The notes under the pieces were generated by a model that had not been told where the DNA came from, made no database searches, and saw nothing but the letters and a program-made list of their open reading frames with translations. Made by a program: the position numbers and the translations under genes. A stretch of DNA of 64,000 bases. It comes from Oscillospiraceae bacterium (lineage in GTDB: Bacteria; Bacillota; Clostridia; Oscillospirales; Acutalibacteraceae). Location of the stretch: assembly GCA_902796075.1 (NCBI GenBank), contig CADBNN010000020.1, positions 4,258 through 68,257 of the forward strand, written 5' to 3'. This document shows positions 5,472 to 39,520 of the stretch, piece by piece (the stretch's first letter is position 1; each line of letters opens with the position of its first letter).

Positions 5472-5513
5472 GGCGGCCTTCTCCTTCCTGAACGAATGGG
5501 TTATTGTTGGCTG

Positions 5514-6575: not shown

Positions 6576-6603
6576 GATTTGTTAATTCCTCCAAACTGGT
6601 GTG

Positions 6604-7098
6604 TTACAATGCCTTGTTAAAAGGATCGTCGTCTAATTTCACGGCAGCCACGTCGGCTTCTGCCAGACTAAGGGCGGCGCCGTTTTCGTCAGTGAGTGCT
6701 AGCATGCCGTTTTGCTTGCCGGCCAGCGTGGCGCGCAGCACCTTTTGGCCGTTAAGCGGGCGGTAAAGATGCACGGTGACAGGCTTACCCTGCATTTGCG
6801 CAAAATGGGCGGGACGGGTCAATTCCCGGTTGAGCCCCGGCGAGCTGACTTCCAGATAATAGGACGGCTCAATAAAATCCGCTTCGTCCAGCGGGTCGTC
6901 CAGCGCCCGGGAAAGGGCTTCGCAGTCTTCAATGGTCACGCCGCCGGGCTTGTCGATAAAATACCGCAAATACCAGGCCGCGCCCTCTTTCACAAACCGC
7001 ACGTCCCACAAAGCAAGACCCAGTTGGGCCGCAATGGGGGCGGCCAGTTGTTCCGCGCGGGCGGCTACGCCACCGTCTTTTTTGGGCAAACCGATCAT
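6604..7098 (-). CDS. rimP: Ribosome maturation factor RimP
   Basis: WDVRFVKEGAAWYLRYFIDKPGGVTIEDCE...YLEVSSPGLNRELTR matches RimP. I placed the start at the ATG giving MIGLPKK (7098), preceded by GAAAGG. The ORF is open up to 7137, so the start is uncertain. Confidence 0.8.
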   Translation of the reverse strand: MIGLPKKDGGVAARAEQLAAPIAAQLGLALWDVRFVKEGAAWYLRYFIDKPGGVTIEDCEALSRALDDPLDEADFIEPSYYLEVSSPGLNRELTRPAHFAQMQGKPVTVHLYRPLNGQKVLRATLAGKQNGMLALTDENGAALSLAEADVAAVKLDDDPFNKAL

Positions 7099-7189
7099 CC
7101 TTTCACAGCAAAAGTTGCATAACGCCGGATGAAACATAAAAGAGCGGGTCGCCCCACTCTTTCACCTACGCTTCTATCCTACTAAATGA

Positions 7190-7218
7190 ACTATATCACA
7201 TGTGAAAAACAAATGCAA
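7190..7218 (-). promoter_or_regulatory. Putative sigma-A promoter of the rimP-nusA-infB operon (minus strand). On plus coordinates the -35 TTGCAT is at 7218-7213 and the -10 TATAGT at 7195-7190.
   Basis: The reverse complement reads TTGCAT, a 17-nt spacer, then TATAGT, about 90 nt upstream of the rimP start. It is embedded in an inverted repeat TGTGAAAAA..TTTTTCACA (7201-7231). Confidence 0.45.
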
Positions 7219-7262
7219 GTGTTTTTTCACAAAAAAAGCAAGTTTTTTTGGGGGTCTGGCCG

Positions 7263-7291
7263 TTGACAAACCGCCGCCCGGCCGCTACAAT
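7263..7291 (+). promoter_or_regulatory. Consensus-like sigma-A promoter, TTGACA-17-TACAAT, for the 7316 gene (divergent from the rimP promoter)
   Basis: TTGACA (7263-7268), a 17-nt GC-rich spacer, TACAAT (7286-7291). The AAAGGGGGG RBS and GTG start at 7316 follow. Confidence 0.55.
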
Positions 7292-7315
7292 AAACAAAAA
7301 AAGGGGGGATAAGCC

Positions 7316-8023
7316 GTGCGAAGCGATTTGTGCAGTATTCCGGTGGAGGAAGTTTTCGCTCCGCGGGAGGGCTGTCCCCTGTGCCGCATGCGGGCCATGC
7401 TGGAAGAGCGGGTGCTCACCTACATTATGGGCGCCGCCATGATGGAACCCGACGTGCGCATACAAACCAACCGGCAGGGATTTTGCTTTGACCATCTCAA
7501 AAAAATGCTCAATCGGCGCAACCGGCTTTCGGTGGCGCTTATGCTGGAAAGCCACCTGACCGAACTGGACCGGCGGGTGTTCGGGCAGGGCAAGCCCTTT
7601 TTCTTAAAGCCTTCCGCCGGCGCGGGCGGGCGTTCGGCCGAACGGGCGGGGGAGACCTGCTTTGTGTGTGAACAGATCGAAACCGGCATGAGCCAGTTGG
7701 TGCGCAACACCATGGTGCTGTATGAAAACGACCGGGCGTTCCGCGAGCTGTTTGCCGGGCAGCCTCAATTCTGCCTGCCCCATTACAGCCTGCTGGCCGC
7801 CGCCGCGGAAAAGCAGTTGAGCAAAAAATACCGGGCCCGGTGTTTAGAGGATCTGACCCGCGTCACCCGTGCCGCTCTGGAAGAACTGCACGGCGACGTG
7901 AAGCATTTTTGTGATATGTTCGATTATCGCAACAACGGGCCGGACGCCGACTGGGGCAACGCCCGGGACGCGCTGGAGCGGGCCGCGCGGATGCTGACCG
8001 CCCGCGACCCGGAAACCGAATGA
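7316..8023 (+). CDS. Hypothetical Cys-rich protein (two CxxC pairs, CPLC and CFVC; DUF6062-like is my recollection only)
   Basis: 235 aa with a GTG start after a G-rich RBS. CPLCRM...GFCFDHL...CFVCEQ...FCLPHY indicates likely Zn binding. No family assigned with confidence. Confidence 0.55.
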   Translation: MRSDLCSIPVEEVFAPREGCPLCRMRAMLEERVLTYIMGAAMMEPDVRIQTNRQGFCFDHLKKMLNRRNRLSVALMLESHLTELDRRVFGQGKPFFLKPSAGAGGRSAERAGETCFVCEQIETGMSQLVRNTMVLYENDRAFRELFAGQPQFCLPHYSLLAAAAEKQLSKKYRARCLEDLTRVTRAALEELHGDVKHFCDMFDYRNNGPDADWGNARDALERAARMLTARDPETE

Positions 8024-8047
8024 TGCCACGAAAGGAGCAAACTGCTT

Positions 8048-8995
8048 ATGTATGTTGCGGGATTTGATATCGGCGGCACCAAGTGCGCCGTGATCACGGC
8101 CCAATGCGAAGGAGACGCTATTACGCTGGAACAAAAGGCGGTGTGTCCCACCGACCATTCCATTTCACCCGCGGCCATGATAGACCGCATGATGGACATG
8201 GCCGACGGTTTGCTGAAGCGCAAGCCGGACGCCATCGGTATTTCCTGCGGGGGACCGCTGGATTCCCGCAAGGGGATCATTTGCAGCCCGCCCAACCTGC
8301 CCGGATGGGACAGCGTGCCCATTGTGGCACAAATGCAGGCGCGTTACGGCGTGCCGGTGCGCTTGCAAAACGACGCCAACGCCTGTGCCCTGGCCGAATG
8401 GAAATACGGCGCCGGCAAGGGCTGTGAAAATATGATTTTTATGACCTTCGGCACCGGCATGGGCGGCGGTCTGATCCTCAACGGGCGGCTGTATGCCGGC
8501 ACCAACGATAACGCCGGCGAGATCGGCCACCTGCGGCTGGACCGGCTGGGTCCGGCGGGCTACGGCAAAACCGGTTCGTTTGAAGGCTTTTGCAGCGGCG
8601 GCGGCCTGGCCCAGTTGGGCTACACCATGGCGGTGGAACAGCTCCAGCGCGGGGTGTGCCCCGCCTATTTTGCCCCCCACATGACCGCTGCCGACGTGAC
8701 GGCCAAAACCGTGGGCGACGCGGCCGAAGCGGGGGACGAGACCGCCCTGGCCGTTTACCGCACCTGCGGGGAATATCTTGGCCGCGGCCTGGCGCTGCTG
8801 GTGGATGTGCTCAATCCCGAATGCATCGTGATCGGCAGCATTTTCGCCCGCAGTCGCGATCTGCTGTGGCCGGCGGCCGAACGGGTGCTGCGGCAAGAGG
8901 CGCTGCCGGGCGCGGTGGCCTGCTGCCGGGTGGTGCCCGCCCAATTAGGAGAACATATCGGCGATTACGCCGCGTGCGTAACGGCCGTTGTATAA
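8048..8995 (+). CDS. ROK family sugar kinase (glucokinase/N-acetylhexosamine kinase-like)
   Basis: 315 aa. N-terminal MYVAGFDIGGTKCAV ATP-binding motif, a ROK Zn motif region (GHLRLD...GCxGG-like FCSGGGLAQLGY), and an AAGGAG-type RBS. Confidence 0.85.
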   Translation: MYVAGFDIGGTKCAVITAQCEGDAITLEQKAVCPTDHSISPAAMIDRMMDMADGLLKRKPDAIGISCGGPLDSRKGIICSPPNLPGWDSVPIVAQMQARYGVPVRLQNDANACALAEWKYGAGKGCENMIFMTFGTGMGGGLILNGRLYAGTNDNAGEIGHLRLDRLGPAGYGKTGSFEGFCSGGGLAQLGYTMAVEQLQRGVCPAYFAPHMTAADVTAKTVGDAAEAGDETALAVYRTCGEYLGRGLALLVDVLNPECIVIGSIFARSRDLLWPAAERVLRQEALPGAVACCRVVPAQLGEHIGDYAACVTAVV

Positions 8996-9007
8996 GGAGA
9001 AATAACT

Positions 9008-9634
9008 ATGTTGCAGGAATTATTAGAACGCTATCCCGCCCTGGCCGCCTGCCGGGCGTCTATTGAACAGGCCGCCGCCTGTTGGATCGATTGCTTTGCG
9101 GACGGCGGCAAATTGCTGGTGTGCGGCAACGGCGGCAGCTGTGCCGATTCCGACCACATTGTGGGGGAACTGATGAAGGGCTTTTTGAAAAAACGGCCCC
9201 TTTCGGCGGCCCAAAAGCAAGCCATGCGCGAGCGTTGCCCCCAGTTGACCGAAGCCGAACTGAACAGCCTGCAGTTGGGACTGCCCACCGTGGCGCTGCC
9301 GGCCTTAACGGCGCTTAACACCGCCTTTTGCAACGACGCCGACCCCACCTTGCTTTACGCGCAGGGTGTCATGGGCCTGGGTCGGCCGGGCGACGTGCTG
9401 GTGGGCATCAGCACGTCGGGCAATTCCGCCAACGTGCTGGCCGCGGCCAAAACCGCCAAAGGATTGGGGCTCACGGTCATCGGCCTCACCGGGCAGGGGG
9501 GCGGCCGTCTGGCCCAGGTGGCCGATGTGTGCATTCGGGTGCCCGCCACCGAAACCTTTAAGGTGCAGGAACTGCATTTGCCGGTATATCACTATTTGTG
9601 CGCCGCTACCGAAGCCCATTTTTACGCCGAATAA
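9008..9634 (+). CDS. SIS-domain phosphosugar isomerase (GmhA/phosphoheptose isomerase-like)
   Basis: 208 aa. GNGGSCADSDHIVGEL and ISTSGNSANV are characteristic SIS/GmhA motifs. The AAGGAGA RBS is 7 nt upstream. Confidence 0.8.
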   Translation: MLQELLERYPALAACRASIEQAAACWIDCFADGGKLLVCGNGGSCADSDHIVGELMKGFLKKRPLSAAQKQAMRERCPQLTEAELNSLQLGLPTVALPALTALNTAFCNDADPTLLYAQGVMGLGRPGDVLVGISTSGNSANVLAAAKTAKGLGLTVIGLTGQGGGRLAQVADVCIRVPATETFKVQELHLPVYHYLCAATEAHFYAE

Positions 9635-9692
9635 AGCAAAAAACAAAAGCGATGCAACCGTTGGCTGCATCGCTTTTTCATTATGTTCGGTT

Positions 9693-10487
9693 TTACGTCC
9701 GGTCGTGTTCCGTGCTGTGGCGCCATTGGGTGGGGGTCATGCCGAAGTGGACCTTGAACCGCCGCACAAAGTTGGAAACGTCGGTGAATCCGCTTTCTTC
9801 ACACACCGCCGCCACCGTGGCGGAGGAGGTGAGCAGCAGCTTTTTGGCGTAATCGAATCGCAGGGCGTCCAAATAGGTTTTGAAGTTTACTTTCATATCC
9901 CGCTTGAACACCGCCGAAGCGTAAGAGGGGGAAAGCCCCACGTAGGCGGCCGCCTGCGCCAACGATATAGGCTGGCGAAAATGGGTGAGCAGATAAAAGT
10001 GGATCTTGGCCACCGCGTCGTCCTGCGAAGGGGCCAGATCGTCCGGCCAGAAGTGCAGCATTTTGCGCAGCAGGCATTCCATCAGCACCGTGCAATAGGC
10101 CAGATCGCCCTGATGTTGAATGATCTCTTCCAGCAGGGGCACCAAAAAGCGCTGGGTGTGCGCGTCGGCCGCCGCCGCTTTGGGAGCGGTCAGGCGCAAA
10201 AAGGGCTCCAAACAATGCTGGGGCACCAAATCGGCCGAAAACATAATGTTCACCAAGTGCACGTTGTTGCCCCGCACGCTGTGGCAGTCCAGGGGCGTCA
10301 TAAAAAACAGCATTCCCTTGTGCATGGGCATCACGGTGCCGTTCAGCGTGCAGTTGCCTTCGCCGCCGGTAATGTATTCTATTTCATAAAAATCGTGGAA
10401 ATGATTCGCTGTAAAGCCGTCAAACCGTTTTTGCCGCGCCACAATACTGCGCTGGTCAAATAAATCTTCTTTTTGCAGTCGTTCCAT
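9693..10487 (-). CDS. AraC family transcriptional regulator (cupin sensor plus C-terminal HTH)
   Basis: The C-terminal ...LTSSATVAAVCEESGFTDVSNFVRRFKVHFGMTPTQWR is an AraC HTH. I placed the start at MERLQ (10487) because AAGGAGG lies 8 nt upstream. The ORF extends to 10508 without an RBS. Confidence 0.85.
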   Translation of the reverse strand: MERLQKEDLFDQRSIVARQKRFDGFTANHFHDFYEIEYITGGEGNCTLNGTVMPMHKGMLFFMTPLDCHSVRGNNVHLVNIMFSADLVPQHCLEPFLRLTAPKAAAADAHTQRFLVPLLEEIIQHQGDLAYCTVLMECLLRKMLHFWPDDLAPSQDDAVAKIHFYLLTHFRQPISLAQAAAYVGLSPSYASAVFKRDMKVNFKTYLDALRFDYAKKLLLTSSATVAAVCEESGFTDVSNFVRRFKVHFGMTPTQWRHSTEHDRT

Positions 10488-10620
10488 AGCCGAATCCTCC
10501 TTGCGCAAGCATTATAGCACAAATCATAAAAAAAATCAATTCCCTTCCAAAAAGTTCTATTGCACTTTCACAAGACCGTGGTATAATACAATTGAACCCG
10601 TGTGTAAGGAGGAGGTCGCC

Positions 10621-13065
10621 TTGCCTCACAATACCTATTATCTGGCAGGCAACGCCCATTTGGATCCTATGTGGCAGTGGACCTGGCAGGAAGGCAGCGG
10701 CGAAGCCAAAGCCACCATCCGTTCCGCCCTGGACCGTATGAAAGAATTTCCCGCGTTTCGCTTTATTTGTTCGTCGGCGCTGGTGTTTGAATGGATCGAA
10801 GAATTTGCTCCCGCCATGCTGGAGGAAATTCGTCAGCGCGTGGCCGAAGGCCGGTTCATTCTGGTGGGCGGCTGGCACGTGCAGCCCGACTGCAATATGC
10901 CCGGCGGCGAATCCTTTGCCCGGCAAAGCCTGTATGCCCAGCGGTATTTCGCCCGCACCTTCGGCGTTACCGCCCGGGTGGGCTATTGTGTAGACAGCTT
11001 TGGCCATTGCGCTACCATGCCCATGCTGCTGCGGCACAGCGGGCTGGACTATTATATATTTATGCGGCCGGGCGCCCACGAAATGGCGCTGCCGGAAGAA
11101 ACCTTCCGCTGGGTCGCGCCCGACGGCAGCCGGGTGCTGGCCAGCCGGATCGACGGCAAGTATGACGTGAATTTTACCTCCGCCGAAGAACTGCAGGAAC
11201 GGCTGGACCATTTGCGCCAAACCACGCGTGAGGGCATGCCGGTGCGCCCCCTGTTTTACGGGGTGGGCAACCACGGCGGCGGCCCCACCATTCAGAATTT
11301 AACGGTGCTGGGCGCCTATGGCGACGCCCATCCCGACGATACGCTGATCTATTCCGATCTGCTTGACTTTTTCGCCGCGGCGGAAAACGCGCCGGTGCCG
11401 CCCGTTTTGTTCAAGGGTGAACTGCAGCACCATGCCAGCGGCTGTTACGCGGCGGAACCCCGGGTAAAAACCGGTGTGCGCCGGGCCGAAACCGCCCTGG
11501 CGGCGGCGGAATCCTACACCATGCTGGCGGCTGCGCTGTGCGGCAAGCCGGCCAAAACCGAAGCTTTTCACAAGGCGTGGGACCGGGTGTGCTTCTGCCA
11601 TTTTCACGATTCCATGGGGGGCTGTTCCATTCGGGAAGCCCATGATGAAACGCTGGCCATGCTGGGCGCCGCCCGCACCACCGCGGCGGAAGAAGAAAAC
11701 AACGCCCTGCAAACCCTTTCCTGGCAGGTGGATACCGGCACCATGGAACAGGGCAAGCCCGTGGTGGTGTTCAATCCCCACGCTTTCCCCGTTACCCACA
11801 CGGTGCAGGTCAACCAGCAGGCGGCGCGCGTCACCGACGAAGCCGGTAACCCGGTGGTGAGCCAGCCGGTGCTGTCTTCTTCCCACGAATGCATGAACCG
11901 GCCGGATACGTTGTTTACCGCTCAGGTGCCTCCGCTTGGCTACCGGGTGTATCATCTGGTGCAGGAGGGCGATCCGCTGCCCGCGGCCGAAAGTCCGGTG
12001 CACGCCGCGTTGTGCGACGGCCCCTGCACCTGCGAAACGGTGAACGGCGCCGTGCTGGAAAACGAACGTCTGCGCCTTACACTGGAAGCCCACACCGGCT
12101 ATGTGCTTTCGCTGTTTGATAAAACCGCCGGCCGGGAACTGCTGGCCGACCGCGGCGGGGTGCCGGTGGTGCTGGATGAATTTTATCACGATACCTGGAG
12201 CCACGCCAAAAACACCTTTGGCGACGTGATGGGCCGCTTTAGCGACGCGCGCATGACGGTGACAGAAAACGGGCCGGTGCGGGCCACCGTGAAGGTGACC
12301 AGCCGTTACGGCCGTTCGGTACTTACCCAATATTTTTCTCTGGCTGCCGGCAGCGACCAGCTGCAGGTGCGGGCCCGGGTGGAATGGCATGAGCGGCACA
12401 AAATGCTCAAGCTGGCCTGGCCTGTTGCGGCGCAGGATCCGCAGGCCTATTATGAGATTCCCTTCGGCGTGATCGCCCGCCCCTGCAACGGGGAAGAAGA
12501 ACCCGGCCTGACCTGGACGGCGGTGCTGGGACGTGAGGGCGGCCTGGCCGTGCTGAATAATAATACCTACAGTTCTTCGGTGCAGGGCGGCACGCTGTAT
12601 CACACGGTGCTTCGCAGTCCCATTTTCGGGGACCACGGCGGTCCCCGCACGGAAGAAAGCGAATACACCGCCCAGGGGCAAACAGACTTTTCCTACGCGG
12701 TGCAGCCTGCCAACGGCACGTGGCACACCCTTGTGCAAGCCGGGCGCCTGCTGAACAAGGGCCTTACCCCCGTGCTGGAAACCTGGCACACCGGCCCCCT
12801 GGCTCACGCTCCCTACGCCGGGCTTGCGGTTAGCGCTCCCAACGTGGCGGTGAGCGCCCTGAAAGCCGCCGAAAACGGCGACGGCCTGGTGGTGCGGGTG
12901 TATGAAACCGACGGCCGCGATACTGATTTTACCGTAAGCGGTGATGCGGTGGGTGCCCCGCTGCAGGGCCGGTTGCCGGCCTTTGGGGTGCAAACCTACT
13001 ACCGCAAAGCAGACCAAACCGTGTGGCAGCCCGTGCTGTTCACGGAAGAAAAACCCGGTTGCTAA
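10621..13065 (+). CDS. Glycoside hydrolase family 38 alpha-mannosidase
   Basis: N-terminal HLDPMWQW...GGWHVQPDCNMPGGESFARQ is the GH38 catalytic-domain signature. The start is assigned to TTG 10621, 5 nt after a strong AAGGAGGAGG RBS. The upstream in-frame ATG at 10501 has no RBS. Confidence 0.85.
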   Translation: MPHNTYYLAGNAHLDPMWQWTWQEGSGEAKATIRSALDRMKEFPAFRFICSSALVFEWIEEFAPAMLEEIRQRVAEGRFILVGGWHVQPDCNMPGGESFARQSLYAQRYFARTFGVTARVGYCVDSFGHCATMPMLLRHSGLDYYIFMRPGAHEMALPEETFRWVAPDGSRVLASRIDGKYDVNFTSAEELQERLDHLRQTTREGMPVRPLFYGVGNHGGGPTIQNLTVLGAYGDAHPDDTLIYSDLLDFFAAAENAPVPPVLFKGELQHHASGCYAAEPRVKTGVRRAETALAAAESYTMLAAALCGKPAKTEAFHKAWDRVCFCHFHDSMGGCSIREAHDETLAMLGAARTTAAEEENNALQTLSWQVDTGTMEQGKPVVVFNPHAFPVTHTVQVNQQAARVTDEAGNPVVSQPVLSSSHECMNRPDTLFTAQVPPLGYRVYHLVQEGDPLPAAESPVHAALCDGPCTCETVNGAVLENERLRLTLEAHTGYVLSLFDKTAGRELLADRGGVPVVLDEFYHDTWSHAKNTFGDVMGRFSDARMTVTENGPVRATVKVTSRYGRSVLTQYFSLAAGSDQLQVRARVEWHERHKMLKLAWPVAAQDPQAYYEIPFGVIARPCNGEEEPGLTWTAVLGREGGLAVLNNNTYSSSVQGGTLYHTVLRSPIFGDHGGPRTEESEYTAQGQTDFSYAVQPANGTWHTLVQAGRLLNKGLTPVLETWHTGPLAHAPYAGLAVSAPNVAVSALKAAENGDGLVVRVYETDGRDTDFTVSGDAVGAPLQGRLPAFGVQTYYRKADQTVWQPVLFTEEKPGC

Positions 13066-13129
13066 CGGGCCCGCGCCCGTTTCGACATTGCTCGAAATTC
13101 TTTGATTCTTAAGAAGGAGATGTTTCAAG

Positions 13130-14986
13130 ATGAAAGCAAGTATAACACGCATCCTCAGTTTGCTGCTTGTGGCCATGATGGCGATCACCATTTTTGCCGG
13201 CTGCACGCAGCAACCGAAGGACACCACGCCTACGGACGTGACGCCCACCGAAACCACCCCCGAATCGGTACCCGAACCCGTTATTGTGGGGCCGGAAGAC
13301 GATGATCCCTATACCATCAGCAAAGACGCCGATGGCAAGGACGTTGTGATCCTTACGCCCAATGACGACGGCACCGCCACCATGAACGTGGCCGAAGGCA
13401 CCACCCTGGAACAGTTCTTCACGCTGGTAACGGCGAAGGAAGGCTACACCCAGAAGGTGACCGACGCGGAAGGCAACGAAGTGACCGATCCCGCCGCCCT
13501 CATCGCCGACGGCATGACCTATGCCGTGTATGCCGACGGGGAGACCGACCCGGCCAAACAGTTTGCCATTCATGTGGAAAGCCAGGAAAAGATCGAAGAA
13601 ACCGTAAGTCAGGCGGCTGTGGTTTCCCAGCAGATCGCCAAAGCCGAAAGCCAACGCGCTAACCAAACCAGCAGCAAGGGCAAAGGCAACGGCAAAACCG
13701 ACAGCAGCAAAAACACCAAATCTTCCACGCCTTCTAAGGACCCCGGCAGCCCCGACACGCCTTCTTCCAAAGACGAAACGCCCATGGAAGATATTATCCT
13801 GTCCACTATCTGGGATCATAACTATCAGGCTTCCGATAATACCGGCAACGCCTGGCAGTCCACCTTCAAAAACATGGAAAAGAAATATCACATCCGCACC
13901 ATCATCGATCCCCATCTGGATGCCGCTACCGCTACCGACCTGATCGTGAAAGACGTTATGGCCGGCAAAGCCCGCGTGGATATTTACGAAGTTTCGCTGG
14001 TGCGCTGCCGCGATATCGCCAAGCGCAAAGCGGCCGCCAACATTTACAAATCCAAAACTATCAACAAGGATGTTTTCAACACCAGCGCTACCAAGTCGGT
14101 CACCTTCAACGGCAAGGTGTACGGCGTGGCGTTCGCTTCCAATGCCCTTAACCCGGTAGGCGTAATCTACAACAAGGACCTGATCAAAAAGTACGCGCCC
14201 GAGTATGACATTGCCAAACTGTATAAAGAGAAAAAGTGGGATTTCGACGCCATGCGCGCCGTGGCCAAGCTGTGCACCCGCGATACCAACGGCGACGGCA
14301 AAACCGATATTTACGGCGTGACCTCCAACACCAACCTGATCGGTATGGCCATCACCAACAACGCCGGCGCTACCGCCGATATGGTGAACGGCCGCGTGGT
14401 ACCGGTTATGTGCAGCGACGAAGGCATTCGCGCTCTTGAATGGTGCAAAGCCCTGTGGAAAGACGATAAGAGCTGGAAGTACTTCGGCGATATCACCGAC
14501 GCAGTGCCCTTCTTCGCTTCTGGCCAATGCGCCATGTTCGCTTCTTATCTGCAGTATTATCCCAACATCGCTTCTTTGGCCGACTTCGATTTCGGTTTCG
14601 TGCTCATGGCTATGGGCCCGGATAAATCGGATTACATCAACGCCGTGTACGACAGCAGTCTGTATATCGTGCCCAAAACCCGCGAAAACCGGCTGGACGT
14701 GATCGGCAACTGGCTCAACGGCGCGGCTACCATGTCCAGCAAGATCATTACCTTCAACGTGCAGAAGATGGCCCGCAACGGCTTTGACAAGACCTCTACC
14801 GACGCTTACAAATGGGTAGTTGCCCACATGACGCCCGAATTCTCTTCCGGCGTGTTCTCCGGCAAAATCGCTTCTCAGGTAGACGGTTCTGTTACCTCGC
14901 CCTCTAAATCGCCTTCCAAAGTTATGACCGCTATCAAAACGGCGGCGCAGGCGGAATGCGACGACTACTACGCGGATCTGTATTGA
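13130..14986 (+). CDS. Extracellular solute-binding protein (ABC-transporter SBP family 1 fold) lipoprotein with a long disordered linker. Orphan: no permease or ATPase adjacent.
   Basis: Signal peptide plus lipobox (IFAGC). A ~200-aa T/P/E/D/K/S-rich linker is followed by an SBP-like domain (...NTNLIGMAITNNAGATADMVNG...). RBS AAGAAGGAG. Confidence 0.7.
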   Translation: MKASITRILSLLLVAMMAITIFAGCTQQPKDTTPTDVTPTETTPESVPEPVIVGPEDDDPYTISKDADGKDVVILTPNDDGTATMNVAEGTTLEQFFTLVTAKEGYTQKVTDAEGNEVTDPAALIADGMTYAVYADGETDPAKQFAIHVESQEKIEETVSQAAVVSQQIAKAESQRANQTSSKGKGNGKTDSSKNTKSSTPSKDPGSPDTPSSKDETPMEDIILSTIWDHNYQASDNTGNAWQSTFKNMEKKYHIRTIIDPHLDAATATDLIVKDVMAGKARVDIYEVSLVRCRDIAKRKAAANIYKSKTINKDVFNTSATKSVTFNGKVYGVAFASNALNPVGVIYNKDLIKKYAPEYDIAKLYKEKKWDFDAMRAVAKLCTRDTNGDGKTDIYGVTSNTNLIGMAITNNAGATADMVNGRVVPVMCSDEGIRALEWCKALWKDDKSWKYFGDITDAVPFFASGQCAMFASYLQYYPNIASLADFDFGFVLMAMGPDKSDYINAVYDSSLYIVPKTRENRLDVIGNWLNGAATMSSKIITFNVQKMARNGFDKTSTDAYKWVVAHMTPEFSSGVFSGKIASQVDGSVTSPSKSPSKVMTAIKTAAQAECDDYYADLY

Positions 14987-15778: not shown

Positions 15779-15807
15779 TTGCCGTTATGTACCGATAGTG
15801 GTACAAT
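15779..15807 (+). promoter_or_regulatory. Promoter TTGCCG-17-TACAAT (with extended -10 TGGTACAAT) for the WYL regulator gene. It contains the perfect palindrome TGTACC-GATAGT-GGTACA (15788-15805) overlapping the spacer and -10: a putative autoregulatory operator.
   Basis: Read directly: -35 at 15779-15784, spacer 15785-15801, -10 at 15802-15807. The palindrome arms are exact reverse complements. Confidence 0.55.
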
Positions 15808-15833: not shown

Positions 15834-16847
15834 ATGAAAAATCCCCAATCGAAAAAGGAAACGTTGAAAGGGCTGGAACCCAAAAAATTGGCGTTGCTGC
15901 GCATTTTGCAAATCATGCAGCAATACAGCGATCACGACCATCCGCTCAAGCAAGAGGATATTGCCCAATATCTTGAAAACGAATACGGTATCGTGATCGA
16001 GCGCAAAGCTATCAGCCGCAACATTTCTTTGCTGAAAGAAGCGGGATTTGAGATCGAATCCTGCCGTGCCGGCAGTTATTTGGACGAGCGCGATTTTACC
16101 GATGCGGAACTGCGCATCCTGATAGACGGCGTTTTATCCAGCAAGTATATCACCGCCAGCTATTCCAAAGCGCTGATCGATAAACTGTGCGCCCTGTCCA
16201 GCCGGTATTTTCGCTCTCACGTGCGGCATATCCATTCGGTAGGGGATTGGGACAAAAGCGAAAACCCGGCTTTGTTTTACAATATCGAGATCGTGGACGA
16301 AGCCATCGAGCAAAAAAAGCAGATCCGGTTTGATTATAACCAGTACGGCGCAGACAAAAAACTGCACAGAACCACCACCCACCGGGTTTCGCCTTACCAG
16401 CTGATCTTGCACAACCAGCGCTATTATTTAATGTGCAAAAGCGAGCGTTGGAAGAACATGGGTTTTTACCGTATGGACCGCATTACCAACATGGCGATCA
16501 CCGAACAAAAACTCACGCCGGTTTCGTCTGTGGAAGGGTACAAAAAAGGCATCAATTATAAGGAACTGGCAACGGCGCTTCCCTATATGTATACCGACAA
16601 GCCGGTGCGGGTGGATTTTATTGCCGCGGCGCAGATCGTAGACCAGATCATCGACTGGTTCGGCAAGGATATCCGCGTGCAGCCGTTGGACGAAAACCAA
16701 CTGAAGGTTACTGTGAAAGCCAGCCCCATGGCCATGGAACACTGGGCGCTGCAGTATGCGGGCTATGTTACCGTAACGGCGCCGGCGGACCTGGTGAACA
16801 ATATCAAAGCCCGCCTGCGGGCCGCGGCGGAACAGTATGACACATAA
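15834..16847 (+). CDS. WYL-domain transcriptional regulator (wHTH-WYL-WCX architecture; BrxR/CapW/PafBC-like)
   Basis: 337 aa. The N-terminal wHTH (LRILQIMQQYSDHDHPLKQEDIAQYL), a central WYL-like region (RFDYNQYGADKKLHRTTTHRVSPYQLILHNQRYYLMCK) and a C-terminal WCX-like region. Start assigned to the ATG at 15834 after a CAGGAGG RBS. Markedly lower GC than flanking DNA. Confidence 0.8.
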   Translation: MKNPQSKKETLKGLEPKKLALLRILQIMQQYSDHDHPLKQEDIAQYLENEYGIVIERKAISRNISLLKEAGFEIESCRAGSYLDERDFTDAELRILIDGVLSSKYITASYSKALIDKLCALSSRYFRSHVRHIHSVGDWDKSENPALFYNIEIVDEAIEQKKQIRFDYNQYGADKKLHRTTTHRVSPYQLILHNQRYYLMCKSERWKNMGFYRMDRITNMAITEQKLTPVSSVEGYKKGINYKELATALPYMYTDKPVRVDFIAAAQIVDQIIDWFGKDIRVQPLDENQLKVTVKASPMAMEHWALQYAGYVTVTAPADLVNNIKARLRAAAEQYDT

Positions 16848-16960: not shown

Positions 16961-17039
16961 ATTTGGCGCGTTATGCCCCGGTTTTGGTACATCGACCGTG
17001 CGATACTCTTTTTATAACGGCCGGAAAGGGGACTGTTGT

Positions 17040-19961
17040 ATGGATCTCATAGGCAACTTGAACGAAAAGCAGCAAGAAGCCGTGCTGGCAACCGAAGGGT
17101 TTGTGCGGGTCATTGCAGGCGCAGGCAGCGGCAAAACCAAGCTTTTGGTCAGTCGGTACGCGTATCTTGTGAAAGAATACGGCATCGATCCGGCCAACAT
17201 TTTGTGCGTTACCTTTACCAACAAAGCGGCCGGTGAAATGAAGCGCCGCATCAGCGCTATCATCGGCGATGAATACGATACGGCGCTGATCTGCACCTAC
17301 CACGGCTTTTGCGCCAGACTGCTGCGGGACGACGGCGAAAAACTGTTTTTATCCAAAAATTTTCAGATCATAGACGCGGTGCAGCAAAAAACCATACTCA
17401 GCGAAATTTACCAAAGGCGGGAATTAAAGCTTGACTACGCCAGCTTTGAAAAAATGCTCAAACAAATAGGAGAATACAAAGCAGCGGCATACCATGCATA
17501 CGTCCCCTGCATGATCAGCCCGGAACAAAAGCAGATCATGGCCGCCGTCGCTTCGCCGGACGACGAGATCGTGGAAGAATATATGCAACGGCAAAAAGCG
17601 GTGAACGCCCTCGATTTTCACGATTTGCTGAGCTTTGCCCTGTATTTGCTGGAAACCGACGAAACCGTGCGCACACGCTGGCAGAACAAACTGAACTATA
17701 TTCAGGTAGACGAATTTCAAGACAGCGCCGCGCGCGAAATGCGGCTGATCGATATTTTGTGCGGCCGTTACCGCAATCTTTTGATCGTGGGCGACCCGGA
17801 TCAGAACATTTACGAATGGCGGGGTTCGGACGTGAAGCTGCTGGTGGATTTTGATAAAACCCACACCCCTACCAAAACGATCATTCTCAATCGCAATTAT
17901 CGCAGCACACCGCAAATACTGGATTGCGCCAACAGCCTGATCGGCCACAACCAACTGCGCTTGAAAAAAGACCTTTTTACCAAGCGCTCGGCGGGCACCA
18001 ACGTTACCCATTTTCATTTTAAAAGCGACGATAAAGAAACCGCCAAAATAGCGGAACTGATCAAAAGCATTGTGCGCAGAAACGAATATAGGTATTCCGA
18101 CATAGCGATTTTGTACCGGTCCGGCTTTTTGTCGCGCCTGGTGGAAAACCGGCTTGCGGAACAAAACATACCCTATGAAATATACGGCGGCGTTAAGTTT
18201 TTTCAGCGCATGGAAGTTTTGGATATGATCGCATACCTGCGGGTGATCGCCTTTGGCGACGATGTTTCGTTCAAGCGCATTATCAACAAACCCCGCAGGC
18301 GTTTCGGCAAAGCCAAACTGCTTGCGCTGGAGCAGCTGCAGGAATCCCTGCAGGCCGCCGGCACACAGACGGTCCCTTTGTTTAACGTTTTGGCGGCTCA
18401 CCTTGAAAACGAGCCGTTTAAAAACAGCGACGCCGCCGGATTCGTGCGGATGATACAGGCTGTGCGAGGCGAAGCGGCCCAATGCAGCATCGGCGAGATC
18501 GTGAACCGCGTGGCGGCCGAATCGGGCTACGAAGCGTACATGCGGGGGTTGGGCGATGAAGAACGCTACAACAATTTAATGGAGTTTAAGCGGGTGGCGG
18601 ATGAGTTTGAGCGAAATTTCGGCGAAGAGATCCCGCTGACGCAGTTTTTGCAGCACCTGGCCCTGCAAAGCGGGGACGACGACGAAACCGAAAGCGACGC
18701 CGTAAAACTCATGACCATACACGCCGCCAAAGGGCTGGAATTCCCCGTGGTGTTCATTATCGGCTTTTCCGAAGGCATTTTTCCGTCTGCCAAAACCATA
18801 GAAGAACGCAAACTGCTGGGCTTGGAGGAAGAACGGCGATTGTGTTACGTTGCCATAACCAGAGCGAAAGAACAGCTGTATTTGATGGATTCCGAAGGGC
18901 TTTCCCAAAACGGCATAAAAAAACTGCCGTCCCGCTTTTTGCGAGAGATCGGGCCGGACCGTTACGACAGGATCGGCGTTATTTCCGACGGGCTCGACCG
19001 GGAAAGCAGAGAATACGCCGCCCGGCTGGACGCAGGATTTGAAACAAAAGCAAGGCGCCTGTATCGGGCAGGCGACGTAGTAACCCACCACGCCTTCGGC
19101 AAAGGGCGGGTGGTTCGTTACGATCCCAAACGCAACAGCCTGACCGTTGCTTTTGAAAAAATAGGGCAGGAGCGTTCGCTTAACGCGGATTATTTCACCC
19201 GGCCGCATACCCTGCCGGCCGTTGCTGCCCCTGCGCCGGAAACGTATCAAACCGAAATCAGCGAAACAGATTTTGAACAAGCAGAAGGCGCCCCGGCGAC
19301 GCCCCGGCTGACGGCCGATTGGATGGAAGATGAAGCGAAGAGTTTACCGTATGATGGGCGTGAGGCGAGGGTGCAAGCCGAAAGCTTTGTGATTCCCGAC
19401 CCGGTGGCGGTGCACCGGGAAGCAGCCGCTCCCGACGAAATCATCACACCTGCGCCTGAACCCGATTATGTTGACGCGCAGGAAGAAGTGAAACGCAAAC
19501 TGGCCAACACGCCCAATTTGTGGAAGCGCGACGACGCACCCCACGACGGCTGGCACTGCGCCGGCGTCAGCGATCTGGGCGCCCCTGTGGGGGTGTGCGA
19601 AATGTGTGGCTGCCAGGTCATCCGGTATGTGCATCACATGGTCCATCCCGCCTTTCACCCGCTTAACGTGGGCTGCGTTTGCGCCGGCAAAATGGAAGGC
19701 AACGTGGAACAGGCGATAAAACGTGAAAACGATTTTAAAAACAAAGAAAATCGCCGCCGGAACTTTTTGAAACGTACGTGGAAAACCTCCCGCAACGGCA
19801 ATCATTACGTCAAAATCAAACAGCACGTGGTCGTGCTGTATCGGCAAAAGGGGGGCTGGCAGTATTCGCTGGACTATGTGTTTTGCAACACGCTTTTTCC
19901 TTCGCGCGACCAGGCGATGAACGCGGCTTTTGAAGCGCTGGATCATGTGATAAAGGCGTAA
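17040..19961 (+). CDS. UvrD/PcrA/Rep-family SF1 DNA helicase with a ~250-aa C-terminal extension containing a Cys/His-rich putative zinc-binding domain
   Basis: Start at ATG 17040 (MDLIGNLNEKQQEAV). Walker A GAGSGKTK; helicase motifs (TFTNKAAGEM, DEFQD, GDPDQNIYEWRG, YRS); a Tudor-like region (GKGRVVRYD...LTVAFE). The C-terminus has HCAG..VCEMCGC..GCVCAG. Confidence 0.85.
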   Translation: MDLIGNLNEKQQEAVLATEGFVRVIAGAGSGKTKLLVSRYAYLVKEYGIDPANILCVTFTNKAAGEMKRRISAIIGDEYDTALICTYHGFCARLLRDDGEKLFLSKNFQIIDAVQQKTILSEIYQRRELKLDYASFEKMLKQIGEYKAAAYHAYVPCMISPEQKQIMAAVASPDDEIVEEYMQRQKAVNALDFHDLLSFALYLLETDETVRTRWQNKLNYIQVDEFQDSAAREMRLIDILCGRYRNLLIVGDPDQNIYEWRGSDVKLLVDFDKTHTPTKTIILNRNYRSTPQILDCANSLIGHNQLRLKKDLFTKRSAGTNVTHFHFKSDDKETAKIAELIKSIVRRNEYRYSDIAILYRSGFLSRLVENRLAEQNIPYEIYGGVKFFQRMEVLDMIAYLRVIAFGDDVSFKRIINKPRRRFGKAKLLALEQLQESLQAAGTQTVPLFNVLAAHLENEPFKNSDAAGFVRMIQAVRGEAAQCSIGEIVNRVAAESGYEAYMRGLGDEERYNNLMEFKRVADEFERNFGEEIPLTQFLQHLALQSGDDDETESDAVKLMTIHAAKGLEFPVVFIIGFSEGIFPSAKTIEERKLLGLEEERRLCYVAITRAKEQLYLMDSEGLSQNGIKKLPSRFLREIGPDRYDRIGVISDGLDRESREYAARLDAGFETKARRLYRAGDVVTHHAFGKGRVVRYDPKRNSLTVAFEKIGQERSLNADYFTRPHTLPAVAAPAPETYQTEISETDFEQAEGAPATPRLTADWMEDEAKSLPYDGREARVQAESFVIPDPVAVHREAAAPDEIITPAPEPDYVDAQEEVKRKLANTPNLWKRDDAPHDGWHCAGVSDLGAPVGVCEMCGCQVIRYVHHMVHPAFHPLNVGCVCAGKMEGNVEQAIKRENDFKNKENRRRNFLKRTWKTSRNGNHYVKIKQHVVVLYRQKGGWQYSLDYVFCNTLFPSRDQAMNAAFEALDHVIKA

Positions 19962-20044
19962 AAATGGCCCTATCCTGCAGTGCTTATCACCGAAAAAGCA
20001 AGGCGCCGCGCCCTATCATACAAAACCGCTGCACACGGCGCAAA

Positions 20045-20078
20045 TGCACCGAAAAGGGTGCATAACAAATGGTAGAAT
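20045..20078 (+). promoter_or_regulatory. Extended -10 promoter (TGgTAGAAT, 20070-20078) for the AAA-protease gene. The perfect palindrome TGCACC-GAAAAG-GGTGCA (20045-20062) occupies the -35 region. It is related to the palindrome in the WYL gene promoter.
   Basis: Read directly from the sequence. An AAAGGAGG RBS at 20087-20094 precedes the ATG at 20103. Confidence 0.5.
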
Positions 20079-20102
20079 AAGCACGAAAAGGAGGTAATAC
20101 TC

Positions 20103-21407
20103 ATGAATGATTTTGAAAAGATCCTCGGCTATGAAGCGATCAAACAAGAACTGATCCAGATCAGCGACGTTCTTGCCAATAGCGAAGCGTATCAAAAGCT
20201 GGGCGTTGAATCTCCGCACGGGCTGTTGCTGTACGGATCGCCCGGCGTGGGTAAAACGCTTATGTCATACGCGGTGATCGCCGCCAGCGGCCGAAAGTCC
20301 TTTATGTGCCGCAAAGATAAACCAAACGGCGATTTTGTAAAGGCGATCAAAGAAACGTTTGCGGCGGCAAAAGCAGCGGCGCCGTCTATCGTGTTTCTTG
20401 ACGACATGGAAAAATTTGCCAACGGCGATGAACGCCATCCGCATGCGGAAGAATACGTTACGGTGCAGTCGTGCATTGACGACTGCAAAGGCCAAGAAGT
20501 GTTTGTGCTCGCCACGGCCAACAAACTGCAGTCACTGCCGAGGTCGCTCCTTCGCGCCGGCCGTTTTGACCGGATGATCAAGGTGCATAACCCCCGCGGG
20601 GAAGACGCCGTGAAAATCATTGACCATTATATCAAAAAGAAGAAATGCATGGCAGATATGGACGCGACCGTTATTGCGCGGATGATGGACGGGCGCTCGT
20701 GTGCGGCGCTGGAAACGGTGATAAACGAAGCGGGGCTGTATGCCGGCTTTGAACGCTCCAACGTGATCACCATGGATCATTTTATGAAAGCGTGTTTGCA
20801 TACCGTTTACGATATTCCCAGCGCGGTGCTGAACGGCCCTGTGCCGAAAACCGACCTGACAAACGGCAACGACCAGCGGGTGCGCATCGTTTACCACGAA
20901 GCCGGCCATGCCACCGTGGCGGAAGTGCTGAATCCCGGAAGCGTCGCGCTCGTTACTGCGTATAACGATGCCGGACATTCCGGCGGATTTACTTCTTACT
21001 GTTGCGACCATGAGCGCAGCACGACGCAAGACATGTTTCGGCAAATATGCGCTTCGCTGGGCGGCATGGCGGCGCTGGATCAGCAATACGGCATGGCAGA
21101 CGCCGGAGTAGGGCAAGACCTGGATCATGCGTTTTCATTGGTCAGCGGCCTTGTGGGAGACGCCTGCATCCGCGGATTCGGTTTTTACGTCAGCGAATGC
21201 GGCGATTCGCAAAGCCGCAAATCCAGGCGAGAGCAGGCGGTCGCCGTTGAAATGGAACGTTGGTATCGAAAAACGAAGGAGATCTTGTCTGCGAACCGTG
21301 ATCTGTTTGAAGCTATTGCGGCTGAACTGTCGCAAAAAGGGGTTCTCACCACGGCGGATATCGACCGGATCAAGCAGCGTTGCCGCATTACGCCGGTCGC
21401 GATCTGA
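20103..21407 (+). CDS. Soluble (no TM) FtsH-like protein: AAA+ ATPase domain fused to an M41-type HEXXH zinc metalloprotease domain
   Basis: 434 aa. Walker A GSPGVGKT; a Walker B-like IVFLDDME (DD rather than DE); sensor-1 TAN; Arg finger RAGRFDR (FtsH has RPGRFDR); HEAGHA zinc motif (FtsH has HEAGHA). No hydrophobic N-terminal segments, and the FtsH aromatic pore loop is absent. Confidence 0.8.
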   Translation: MNDFEKILGYEAIKQELIQISDVLANSEAYQKLGVESPHGLLLYGSPGVGKTLMSYAVIAASGRKSFMCRKDKPNGDFVKAIKETFAAAKAAAPSIVFLDDMEKFANGDERHPHAEEYVTVQSCIDDCKGQEVFVLATANKLQSLPRSLLRAGRFDRMIKVHNPRGEDAVKIIDHYIKKKKCMADMDATVIARMMDGRSCAALETVINEAGLYAGFERSNVITMDHFMKACLHTVYDIPSAVLNGPVPKTDLTNGNDQRVRIVYHEAGHATVAEVLNPGSVALVTAYNDAGHSGGFTSYCCDHERSTTQDMFRQICASLGGMAALDQQYGMADAGVGQDLDHAFSLVSGLVGDACIRGFGFYVSECGDSQSRKSRREQAVAVEMERWYRKTKEILSANRDLFEAIAAELSQKGVLTTADIDRIKQRCRITPVAI

Positions 21408-21417
21408 ATCCGCGCCC

Positions 21418-22122
21418 ATGTATATCAAGCGGCTGGAGATCGATCCTTTTGAAGAATGCGGGCCTATTGGCATATCGTTTGCCGAAGACGTTACGGTGAT
21501 CGACCACAATGTGGGTCAAACGGTCGTCGGCGCAATCAAAATGTTGCTGCTGTATTCTTCGCAGTACGGTGTCGACTTGCCCTTTTCGGCGGGGAAACCG
21601 GCCAAACTGTTTGCCGAAGTGGTGGCCGGTGACGCGACATACCACGTGCGGTCTTGCGGCCTTGCCGGCGGTTTGACGGTGCAGCGGCTTGCAAAGGACG
21701 GCACGATCACACGGGCCGAAGAAGCGTATTGCGCCCTGATGCGGCGGTGCGCGGAGGAAAACAGGATCTCGGTCGTTGCCGGCGTGCATAACGGCTCGGA
21801 TTACGGCCTTGAGCGATACCGCCGGGAGGATCGGTATTACGGTGCGGGCGTTTTTGCCCGTGTAACAGACGGGATGTGCTTAACGCACTCTTTCCGCCGG
21901 TGTGTGAGGCAGCACATGCGCCAAAATGCGGCCGAAGCTCCCAACGCGGATACGCCGGCAAGACCGTGGATCGATACCGTAAGATTTTGGAATGCGTTCG
22001 GCAAAATGCGGGATCTTCATTATGAGGGAAAACCGCTTGTTGTGGACCAAACGCTGCTTTCGTTTGTTTCTGCGCCGGTCTTGTTCCGCATGACCGGCAG
22101 ACAGGTGCTGATCGTAACGTAA
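21418..22122 (+). CDS. Hypothetical protein, co-transcribed with the AAA-protease (10-nt gap). The N-terminus resembles a RecF/SMC-type ABC-ATPase N-terminal strand but has a degenerate P-loop.
   Basis: 234 aa. MYIKRLEIDPFEE...ISFAEDVTVIDHNVGQTVVGAIKMLL aligns in pattern with the MxIxxLxLxNF...IxGxNGxGKS N-termini, but the GKS/T is missing. Weak RBS. Confidence 0.5.
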   Translation: MYIKRLEIDPFEECGPIGISFAEDVTVIDHNVGQTVVGAIKMLLLYSSQYGVDLPFSAGKPAKLFAEVVAGDATYHVRSCGLAGGLTVQRLAKDGTITRAEEAYCALMRRCAEENRISVVAGVHNGSDYGLERYRREDRYYGAGVFARVTDGMCLTHSFRRCVRQHMRQNAAEAPNADTPARPWIDTVRFWNAFGKMRDLHYEGKPLVVDQTLLSFVSAPVLFRMTGRQVLIVT

Positions 22123-22138
22123 TAAGTTTATTTTCAAA

Positions 22139-22178
22139 GCAACCGCCGAAACGATGGCGCCATCGTTTCGGCGGTTGC
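22139..22178. terminator. Bidirectional intrinsic terminator between the convergent hypothetical gene (+) and spoVAC (-)
   Basis: GCAACCGCCGAAACGATGG..CCATCGTTTCGGCGGTTGC is a 19-nt perfect inverted repeat, flanked by T-rich (plus strand) and A-rich runs. Confidence 0.6.
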
Positions 22179-22189
22179 TTGCGCTTTAT

Positions 22190-35186: not shown

Positions 35187-35324
35187 CGCGTTTACTTGAT
35201 TATATCACACGGTCACGTAACCGTCAAGTATTTTTTTCGAATTTTTTCGGTTTTTTTATTGACTTATGTCGGCTTTCCATTATATTATAAAGAAGCAAGA
35301 CAAGCACCCCGAAGGAGGTACCTT

Positions 35325-37175: not shown

Positions 37176-37212
37176 GGATGAAAGTTTTGTATTCTTTATG
37201 GAGGACACTGTT

Positions 37213-39468: not shown

Positions 39469-39486
39469 CAGTTTTTTATACGACCG

Positions 39487-39520
39487 CGACCGCTCTGCAC
39501 CGGCAGGGCGGTCGTTTTTT
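39487..39520 (+). terminator. Intrinsic terminator after paralog 2
   Basis: CGACCGC...GCGGTCG stem with an inner CTGC/GCAG stem, followed by TTTTTT. Confidence 0.5.

Follow-up and report, generated by a model that had tools for sequence, protein, structure and literature searches.

Proteases of the FtsH family are membrane-anchored machines that couple ATP-driven threading of their substrates to proteolysis. The chloroplast FtsHi proteins (the Ycf2-FtsHi motor) are derived from FtsH and have lost one of its activities, the motor having been kept and the zinc site lost. NSF D2, the Walker B motif of which is Asp-Asp, and p97 D1-type rings belong to the classical AAA clade, lack an aromatic pore loop and assemble into rings in a nucleotide-dependent manner, stacked on an active second AAA ring of the same polypeptide. 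Here we describe a gene at positions 20103 to 21407 of a 64,000-nucleotide stretch of DNA from an Oscillospiraceae bacterium (contig CADBNN010000020.1 of assembly GCA_902796075.1; the whole stretch is called the window below). Judged by its domain matches and motifs, its 434-amino-acid product is a divergent cytoplasmic module of FtsH (AAA, lid and M41 domains) without the membrane anchor.

As regards regulation, PafBC uses a -26 motif in place of a -35 box, acts by sigma adaptation and is activated by single-stranded DNA (PMC11804915), and in mycobacteria the Pup-proteasome, which is encoded together with pafBC, returns RecA to pre-stress levels after DNA stress (PMC8223512). As regards genomic company, the MoxR-vWA FtsH ternary systems of deltaproteobacteria, actinobacteria and planctomycetes are predicted conflict systems, the third component of which has two FtsH-type AAA domains, the N-terminal one inactive, and no M41 domain (Kaur et al. 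2020, PMC7159879). What is chiefly new in the present analysis is the regulatory setting: a regulator of DNA-damage type (WYL) encoded nearby appears to switch on the protease along with genes of replication and repair. In the literature outside subscription journals no description was found of an FtsH family without transmembrane helices and pore loop, or of a Clostridia WYL regulon containing it.

Architecture and conservation of the protease

The features of the gene and its product are given here; the conservation counts, as everywhere below, refer to 136 aligned representatives of the family that share at most 50% identity.

20103-21407, plus strand: protease coding sequence, 434 amino acids, a soluble FtsH-like AAA and M41 zinc metalloprotease (from Pfam and Foldseek)
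20235-20258, plus strand: Walker A motif GSPGVGKT, residues 45-52 (G45, G48, G50 and K51 in 136/136)
20298-20333, plus strand: strand beta2 and pore-1 remnant SFMCRKDKPNGD, residues 66-77 (from the AlphaFold2 secondary structure and alignments)
20388-20411, plus strand: Walker B motif IVFLDDME, residues 96-103, with Asp for the catalytic Glu (D100 in 136/136, D101 in 135/136)
20520-20573, plus strand: sensor-1 N140 and second region of homology with the Arg fingers R151 and R154 (RAGRFDR, residues 151-157; each of the three in 134/136)
20895-20909, plus strand: zinc site HEAGH, residues 265-269 (HEAGHA, 265-270; H265, E266 and H269 in 136/136)
21117-21119, plus strand: D339, predicted third zinc ligand (135/136)

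The earlier note on this DNA, made from the letters alone, had described a 434-residue protein that starts directly at the AAA module without hydrophobic N-terminal segments, and this was confirmed. A GGAGG at 20090-20094 precedes the ATG with a spacing of 8 nt, and an in-frame stop stands 10 codons upstream, so that an N-terminal extension is impossible and a missed upstream start, which might have added transmembrane helices, is ruled out; the intergenic gap before the gene is 141 nt (19962-20102). Since the Kyte-Doolittle hydropathy (19-residue window) reaches 1.25 at most, the protein has no transmembrane helix. Pfam places AAA at residues 41-161, AAA_lid_3 at 187-229 and Peptidase_M41 at 257-423, the last with 54 bits against a cut-off of 29.9. 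The NCBIfam FtsH model TIGR01241 is matched only between its positions 160 and 597 (180 bits against a cut-off of 600), thus the transmembrane and periplasmic part of FtsH is absent; PRK10733 gives 116 bits against a cut-off of 1008.

The Walker A, RAGRFDR and HEAGHA motifs named in the note are present, and their counted residues are invariant or nearly so. In the HMMER alignment with the solved FtsH of T. maritima HEAGH pairs with HEAGH, D339 with the Asp of NDIE and IVFLDDME with IVFIDEID, and the proposed exchange of Glu for Asp in FLDDME (residues 98-103) is therefore real; Glu occupies the position of D101 in none of the representatives. The Walker B motif of the solved classical AAA relatives is D-E in all the displayed alignments (IVFIDEID or IVFLDEID).

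The canonical FVG pore loop is likewise replaced by the segment SFMCRKDKPNGD, as had been claimed. The alignment with T. maritima FtsH starts only downstream of this segment, and in the alignment with VAT the KPNG of the protease, immediately preceded by a deletion of five residues, stands opposite the KWVG pore loop. The AlphaFold2 model (pLDDT 84.6, pTM 0.76) has a strand at residues 65-70, a four-residue turn (KDKP) and a helix at 75-91; the beta2-alpha2 connection of four residues, against about 13 in FtsH, is too short for a pore-1 loop to form. Aligned to an approximate E. coli FtsH sequence that served as a ruler only, the pore-1 and pore-2 regions are each 8 residues shorter, and the 'MDGF' of FtsH corresponds to 'IDDC', the Phe of 'DGF' not being conserved; the shortening of the pore-2 segment relative to FtsH varies between alignments from 3 to 8 residues. 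With Foldseek the full-length model matches the cytoplasmic regions of FtsH, AFG3L2 and YME1 with TM-scores of 0.73-0.81, the value for AFG3L2 with bound substrate being 0.81.

The protease thus shares with FtsH, Yme1 and AFG3L2 the order of AAA, lid and M41 domains, Walker A, sensor 1, the Arg fingers, HEXXH and the Asp zinc ligand, and differs from them by the absence of transmembrane helices and of a periplasmic or intermembrane-space (IMS) domain, by a D-D instead of a D-E Walker B, by the deleted pore-1 loop and by the shortened pore-2 segment. Because the transmembrane anchor, the curated score, the Walker B Glu and the pore loop all fail, it should not be filed as FtsH. FtsHi, which is among its structural matches, is its mirror image, since the protease keeps an invariant zinc site and has lost the translocation elements. 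Its predicted AAA ring resembles structural rings such as that of NSF D2. In contrast to the NSF D2 and p97 D1-type rings, this would be the sole AAA ring and is coupled to a protease, and sensor 1 and the Arg fingers are intact.

A word-indexed search with the protease returned more than 3,000 matches. The best 120 are 55-99% identical to the query, originate from assemblies of Clostridia, Oscillospiraceae and Eubacteriales and are annotated as 'AAA family ATPase' at most; about 116 of them are 410-460 residues long, the exceptions including one 352-residue fragment; with thousands of homologues of the same length the architecture is not due to chance. At least 150 cluster representatives at 50% identity were collected by an exhaustive profile search (E < 1e-106), and those listed are nearly all 410-450 residues long and match from residue 1. 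Walker A follows the pattern G-x-P-G-x-G-K-[TS] across the family. The end of strand beta2 is basic in at least 96% of the representatives (R/K at position 70 in 131/136, K/R at position 71 in 132/136), and no conserved aromatic residue was found among them in the pore-1 segment. All but two of the representatives of about 430 residues stay below the hydropathy flag of 1.8, and the peaks of these two (1.85-1.87) are internal to conserved domains. Since the traits are fixed across the 136 representatives, the D-D Walker B and the lost pore loop are family traits and not signs of decay, and a pseudogene or an annotation artefact is excluded as well. As read from the alignments, the family is under strong selection as a zinc protease and nucleotide-binding oligomer, with the translocation elements consistently absent. 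It is large, and its members belong mainly to Clostridia or to the plasmids and mobile elements of these bacteria; the existence of the family with these traits can be taken as practically certain.

Some members carry additions: P0225 ends in an FtsK_gamma winged-helix domain of DNA-binding type (49.8 bits, cut-off 30.6), P0173 shows a weaker FtsK_gamma match, and the N-terminal tails of P0267 and P0274 are acidic. In an alignment-based metagenome scan that gave 80 loci, about 15 contain family members, the rest being mostly ordinary FtsH and other AAA genes. Matches from phage collections were rejected as ordinary FtsH-like genes of at most 30% identity, for example a 576-amino-acid gene with an N-terminal extension in a Pseudomonas jumbo phage. 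A relative at 36% identity is encoded on a 214-kb viral contig (L087, IMG/VR UViG_3300011008_000004, 4316-14432) among genes for a NAD-ligase, a class-1 peptide release factor, a PD-(D/E)XK nuclease, TnpB and NrdD with an intein; this contig has the look of a jumbo phage, possibly with recoded stops. P0208, P0250 and P0263 are giant FtsH-like proteins of 1184-1367 amino acids with a transmembrane/FtsH_ext N-terminus, three to four tandem classical AAA domains and one M41 domain, and for this reason they were rejected as 'Rosetta-stone' fusions of the protease with the 670-residue AAA protein described below.

Shared promoter element and WYL regulator

The strongest functional clue is the promoter and operator shared with other genes, which ties the protease to the adjacent WYL regulator and to replication and repair genes. 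The elements concerned are located in the window as follows.

20045-20078, plus strand: protease promoter without a -35 box, TGCACC-N6-GGTGCA (20045-20062), 10-nt spacer, -10 TAGAAT (20073-20078) (from the register of 14 loci and a position weight matrix)
15834-16847, plus strand: regulator gene with helix-turn-helix, WYL and WCX domains, ATG at 15834 (listed open reading frame from 15798; Pfam WYL, WCX and HTH_11; PADLOC WYL)
15789-15807, plus strand: WYL promoter palindrome GTACC-N6-GGTAC (15789-15804), exact, overlapping the -10 TACAAT (TTGCCG-17-TACAAT)
17040-19961, plus strand: UvrD/PcrA-like helicase with a Cys/His-rich C-terminal extension of about 250 amino acids (Pfam UvrD-helicase and UvrD_C; TIGR01073 588 bits against 911)
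16975-17007, plus strand: helicase promoter palindrome GCCCC-N6-GGTAC with one mismatch, 11-nt spacer, GATACT, a weaker site

The palindrome of the protease promoter is perfect (TGCACC-GAAAAG-GGTGCA), and a sigma-70 scan found no -35/-10 pair in the 141-nt region upstream of the gene. The WYL gene lies 4.2 kb upstream of the protease gene, and no sequence match to its product was found in the PDB. Exact GYACC-N6-GGTRC occurs in the 64-kb window only at the WYL and protease promoters, that is, twice against 0.46 expected, and 7 of 100 shuffles reach two. The helicase site matches the weight matrix on the opposite strand, its plus orientation being below the threshold. The helicase extension (19230-19958) contains a Cys/His cluster (CEMCGC...HHMVH...GCVCAGKM); it has no PDB sequence match, and the Pfam scan of the full-length helicase assigned no domain to it.

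The upstream regions of the protease gene at 14 loci, the proteins of which share about 37% to about 70% identity with the window copy, align without internal gaps save for one column in one sequence, and give the consensus G-Y-N-C-C, N6, G-G-N-R-C-A-T, about 10 nt and TATAAT. A position weight matrix built from the protease-promoter sites and applied to 420 kb from 27 loci gave 57 matches that reach 14 bits or more, where shuffled controls gave 1-7. At all four loci outside the training set (L131, L132, L134 and L136) a site stands directly upstream of the protease gene. Further sites precede the gene of the 670-residue AAA protein (seven loci), DnaE-like polymerase genes (L001, L003), a NAD-type ligase gene (L004) and SNF2 helicase operons (L126, L134). 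On plasmid pCY186 of Butyrivibrio proteoclasticus B316 (L129) sites are found at 1592, 4977, 5789, 7351, 8905 and 13066, and the six units that carry them are the WYL gene, a hypothetical gene, the dnaX operon, a pol III alpha fragment, the protease gene and the PolC operon.

A WYL gene is the neighbour of the protease gene in the window and at no fewer than nine further loci (L003, L006, L007, L011, L023, L127, L129, L132 and L134); L127 has a minimal divergent WYL/protease pair 122 bp apart, and in L132 an arm of WYL, PD-(D/E)XK and UvrD genes lies opposite the protease gene. Within one genome the WYL and protease promoters carry the same variant of the half-site, GYACC/GGTRC in the window and ATGTGC/GCACAT in pCY186. 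From this co-location and the shared variants alone we infer that the WYL protein binds the palindrome. That these genes form one regulon is, in our judgement, quite probable, and the palindrome may mark an undescribed, apparently LexA-independent regulon of the WYL type, serving DNA stress or replication in Clostridia and on plasmids and mobile elements. We know of no description of LexA-independent DNA-stress responses in gut or rumen Clostridia.

The arrangement resembles the PafBC and DriD regulons with their link to the Pup-proteasome in the adjacent WYL gene, in the promoters without a -35 box, in the position of the element about 10-11 nt upstream of the -10, in the apparent replication and repair regulon and in the AAA-dependent protease that is genomically tied to the regulator. 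It differs in that the carriers are Clostridia, that the protease is an FtsH derivative and not Mpa with the 20S proteasome, and that the operator is palindromic, which suggests a homodimer.

Downstream gene and genomic neighbourhoods

The protease gene is followed by a second gene of the same operon.

21418-22122, plus strand: coding sequence of 234 amino acids, putative degenerate RecF/SMC/PtuA-like ABC head without P-loop (10-nt gap after the protease gene; weak matches)
22137-22180, strand not assigned: terminator hairpin with a 20-bp stem that ends the operon, common to a convergent spoVAC-like gene

The earlier note had suggested, as one example of a role, that the protease might process the neighbouring small protein. 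What was found instead is the 234-residue ABC-like protein, which accompanies only part of the family: homologues detected with the partner profile stand directly downstream of the protease gene at 6 of 22 loci scanned. The window copy gave no Pfam match, and one family member matched AAA_23 (E 0.0019). The N-terminus (MYIKRLxIxNFG...) aligns weakly (E 0.1-0.7) to the N-termini of RecF, SMC and retron PtuA ATPases, with a three-residue gap exactly at the GKS of the RecF P-loop. The likeness to ABC/SMC-RecF ATPases is confined to the N-terminal strand-turn-strand and the C-terminal 'GRQVLIVT', and the full set of Walker A P-loop, signature, Walker B D-E and H-loop is not present; in longer members the segments 'LSxxE...' and '...GRQVIILT' are suggestive of an ABC signature and an H-loop. 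The partner is probably a non-catalytic, degenerate ABC/SMC-type head, a lead and at best a degenerate relative of these ATPases. It evolves fast, and the word-indexed search gave five homologues.

Partner homologues follow the protease gene directly in L001, L004, L006, L123 and L126 (split in the last), and in L013 a homologue is placed elsewhere, behind a DnaE fragment; candidate partner genes of similar size (281-295 residues) occur in the corresponding position of L131, L134 and L136. Beside the minimal WYL and protease pairs the partner is absent. Right behind the ABC-like partner, a 185-residue ClpP-like protein (CLP_protease) is encoded in L004 (10201-10758), L131 (9201-9758) and L134 (9196-9753), which brings two types of protease into one gene block. 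The L013 fragment ahead of the ABC-like gene (11557-12510) is a pol III alpha fragment, and others (NTPase/finger domains, 317-480 amino acids) flank the protease gene of pCY186 (7427-8869 and 10279-11277); split, degenerate or specialised polymerase subunits are the options for them.

Two settings recur around the protease gene. In the first, found in the window, L003, L132 and pCY186, the WYL gene, with or without UvrD and PD-(D/E)XK genes, is combined with the protease gene, and DnaA/IstB-like small AAA, Metallophos and DnaE-like polymerase genes lie downstream. The second (L001, L004, L123, L126, L131, L134 and L136) comprises SNF2 (WH_1/DUF8437), a MoxR-type AAA, DUF2201 (vWA), the 670-residue AAA protein (AAA_lid_6), the protease, the ABC-like and the ClpP-like protein, often near GmrSD and on mobilisable or integrative elements. 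The 670-residue protein is encoded directly upstream of the protease in L001 (5910-7931), L004 (5921-7936), L123 (5910-7934), L126 (5615-7630), L131 (4921-6936) and L136 (4920-6935). Its C-terminal half is a CbbX/SpoVK-like AAA domain with a D-E Walker B (FIDEA) and a YVG pore loop, its N-terminal half (about 400 residues) has no assigned domain, and its gene carries the protease-type promoter element. It may be an unfoldase partner of the protease.

The second setting recalls the MoxR-vWA ternary systems, since several related loci have the protease beside a MoxR-type AAA, DUF2201/vWA and a further classical AAA; the protease, however, is one AAA domain with M41, and tblastn with the proteins of the related loci found no MoxR or DUF2201/vWA match in the window, nor was a homologue of the 670-residue AAA protein found there. 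The AAA part also resembles IetA of the IetAS pair (IetA AAA and IetS protease; PADLOC E 4e-17, NCBIfam NF042959 E 4e-14), but the similarity covers the generic AAA core only (52.8 bits against a cut-off of 510), the protease is here a fused M41 domain, and there is no IetS-like serine protease gene among the neighbours. By its score and by its single AAA with M41 the protease was rejected both as IetA and as a ternary-system component, and PADLOC recognised no known defence system at the window locus.

In the window the protease gene is part of a chromosome; infB and genes for dockerin glycoside hydrolases are not far away, and the G+C content around it is slightly reduced. At 35196-44512 and 59495-63451 there are four tandem paralogous putative glycoside hydrolases of the GxGYxYP family, three of them with an N-terminal dockerin, and the same regions encode a 1318-residue protein with a C-terminal dockerin; the dockerin genes suggest a cellulosome-type Oscillospiraceae or Ruminococcaceae chromosome. 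Open reading frames overlap on opposite strands at 13130-14986 (plus, 618 amino acids) and 13109-14827 (minus, 572 amino acids), and the product of the former has no Pfam or PHROG match.

Proposed function and alternative explanations

As a composite reading, which we favour but hold with somewhat less than even confidence, we propose a nucleotide-gated chamber protease without an unfoldase of its own, which would be induced under the control of the WYL regulator in response to DNA stress. The protein would form an FtsH-like ring, as implied by its conserved Arg fingers, and the proteolytic chamber of this ring would be assembled or gated through the binding and slow hydrolysis of ATP. Since such a ring could not pull folded substrates, it would thread none by itself and would cut flexible, unfolded or partner-delivered proteins, the degenerate ABC-like protein and, elsewhere, the 670-residue AAA protein with its YVG pore loop being the candidates for delivery. 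Induction would be due to a WYL-type activator that senses single-stranded DNA in the manner of PafBC and DriD, and would take place together with replication and repair genes; the role of the protease would be to degrade proteins of replication or repair, or regulators, in a controlled manner while the DNA stress lasts or afterwards, for which the link of PafBC to the Pup-proteasome in mycobacteria is a functional analogue. The parts of this reading are not equally firm: the lack of an autonomous unfoldase is slightly favoured over its presence, and the specific physiological role is clearly more doubtful.

Several observations weigh against this reading. Asp-Asp Walker B motifs occur in active AAA+ enzymes, for example DnaA and papillomavirus E1, and the invariant sensor 1 and Arg fingers argue for ATP hydrolysis, so that a motor function is possible. 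The palindrome upstream of the UvrD-like gene is imperfect, and the palindrome could belong to a factor other than the WYL protein. AlphaFold2 gave a pLDDT of 42 for the 234-residue partner, with only five sequences available. Additionally, many neighbourhoods have genes of defence or mobile type (GmrSD, SNF2 with MoxR and DUF2201, relaxase, integrases), thus the response could be directed to invading DNA and not to damage. With these reservations the interpretation of the earlier note is partly supported: an attenuated ATPase or limited unfoldase is reasonable and fits the traits fixed in the family, while a pure ATP-binding switch is insufficient, since it fails to explain the invariant HExxH and Asp, sensor-1 Asn and Arg fingers; the processing of the neighbour is weak.

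The defence-type neighbours would suit an effector or regulator of a conflict system (anti-phage, anti-plasmid, anti-defence or for the establishment of mobile elements), in which the WYL protein would release the protease on foreign or damaged DNA and specific host or invader proteins would be cleaved, possibly with growth arrest; it would be comparable to the protease effectors of other defence systems and to the ternary systems with an extra classical AAA. We regard this as rather unlikely. In its favour, WYL regulators control defence systems, PADLOC lists WYL as CRISPR-associated, and close relatives are found in the SNF2 (DUF8437)/MoxR/DUF2201 (vWA)/670-residue AAA/protease/ABC-like/ClpP-like block, often beside GmrSD restriction genes, relaxase/MobC, resolvases or integrases. 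One relative stands on the 214-kb viral contig among ligase, nuclease and NrdD genes, and MoxR-vWA systems with FtsH-type AAA proteins are predicted conflict systems (PMC7159879). On the other hand, no PADLOC model was matched beyond the generic AAA similarity to IetA, the protease gene of the window lies on a chromosome and has no MoxR, vWA, integrase or restriction genes in its vicinity, most of the co-regulated genes encode enzymes of replication and repair (DnaE-like, PolC, DnaX, ligase, UvrD), and the published ternary component has two AAA domains and no M41 (PMC7159879).

The remaining explanations concern the mechanism of the enzyme itself. A fully functional ATP-driven unfoldase-protease, with Asp101 as the catalytic base and other residues (e.g. 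R70/K71) gripping the substrate, would agree with the invariance of Walker A, the sensor-1 Asn and both Arg fingers, as expected if hydrolysis matters, with the basic residues R70/K71 and with the superposition on substrate-bound AFG3L2; nevertheless it is improbable, because the four-residue beta2-alpha2 connection of the model leaves the channel axis out of reach, the pore-2 segment is shortened, the Phe of 'DGF' is replaced and the loop has no conserved aromatic residue. Similarly improbable is a so far unrecognised class of DNA-stress-induced, DNA-associated AAA-metalloprotease that would have traded its threading loops for a wide basic channel and would clear DNA-trapped proteins (crosslinks, stalled replisome or repair complexes), with a RecF/SMC-like or FtsK-gamma targeting module and a WYL-controlled, LexA-independent regulon in Clostridia and mobile elements. 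In its plainer form, a DNA-directed protease whose ring, widened by the loss of the pore loop and lined by R70/K71, binds or encircles DNA and removes the proteins stuck on it, targeted by the partner or by FtsK-gamma, has a slender chance: the replication and repair context and regulon, the FtsK_gamma fusions of P0225 and, more weakly, P0173, the resemblance of the partner to the N-termini of RecF, SMC and PtuA and the conserved basic residues at the channel-facing end of beta2 are in its favour, but it is entirely inferential, the fusions are rare (2 of about 150 representatives), and the partner, which has no P-loop, is missing at many loci. Finally, a dedicated processing enzyme for the protein encoded immediately downstream is very improbable. 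The two genes are 10 nt apart with a common terminator and the pairing recurs in L001, L004, L006, L123 and L126, and by size and position in L131, L134 and L136; but the downstream protein is missing from the minimal WYL and protease loci and from more distant family members, its L013 homologue follows a DnaE fragment instead, and its homologues, of 234-300 residues, have no conserved leader or cleavage motif.

In this family of at least 150 clusters at 50% identity, strict selection maintains the nucleotide and zinc sites, although the threading loops and the membrane anchor are gone. The family is thus a natural experiment that can show how an AAA ring serves an M41 protease other than by unfolding. 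Since a cultured carrier with a complete sequence is available (Butyrivibrio proteoclasticus B316, pCY186, BPR_RS19030), these questions are directly testable. Furthermore, through its promoter the protease is linked to a WYL-type regulon that brings together genes for replication and repair, in Clostridia of the gut and rumen and on their plasmids and mobile elements.

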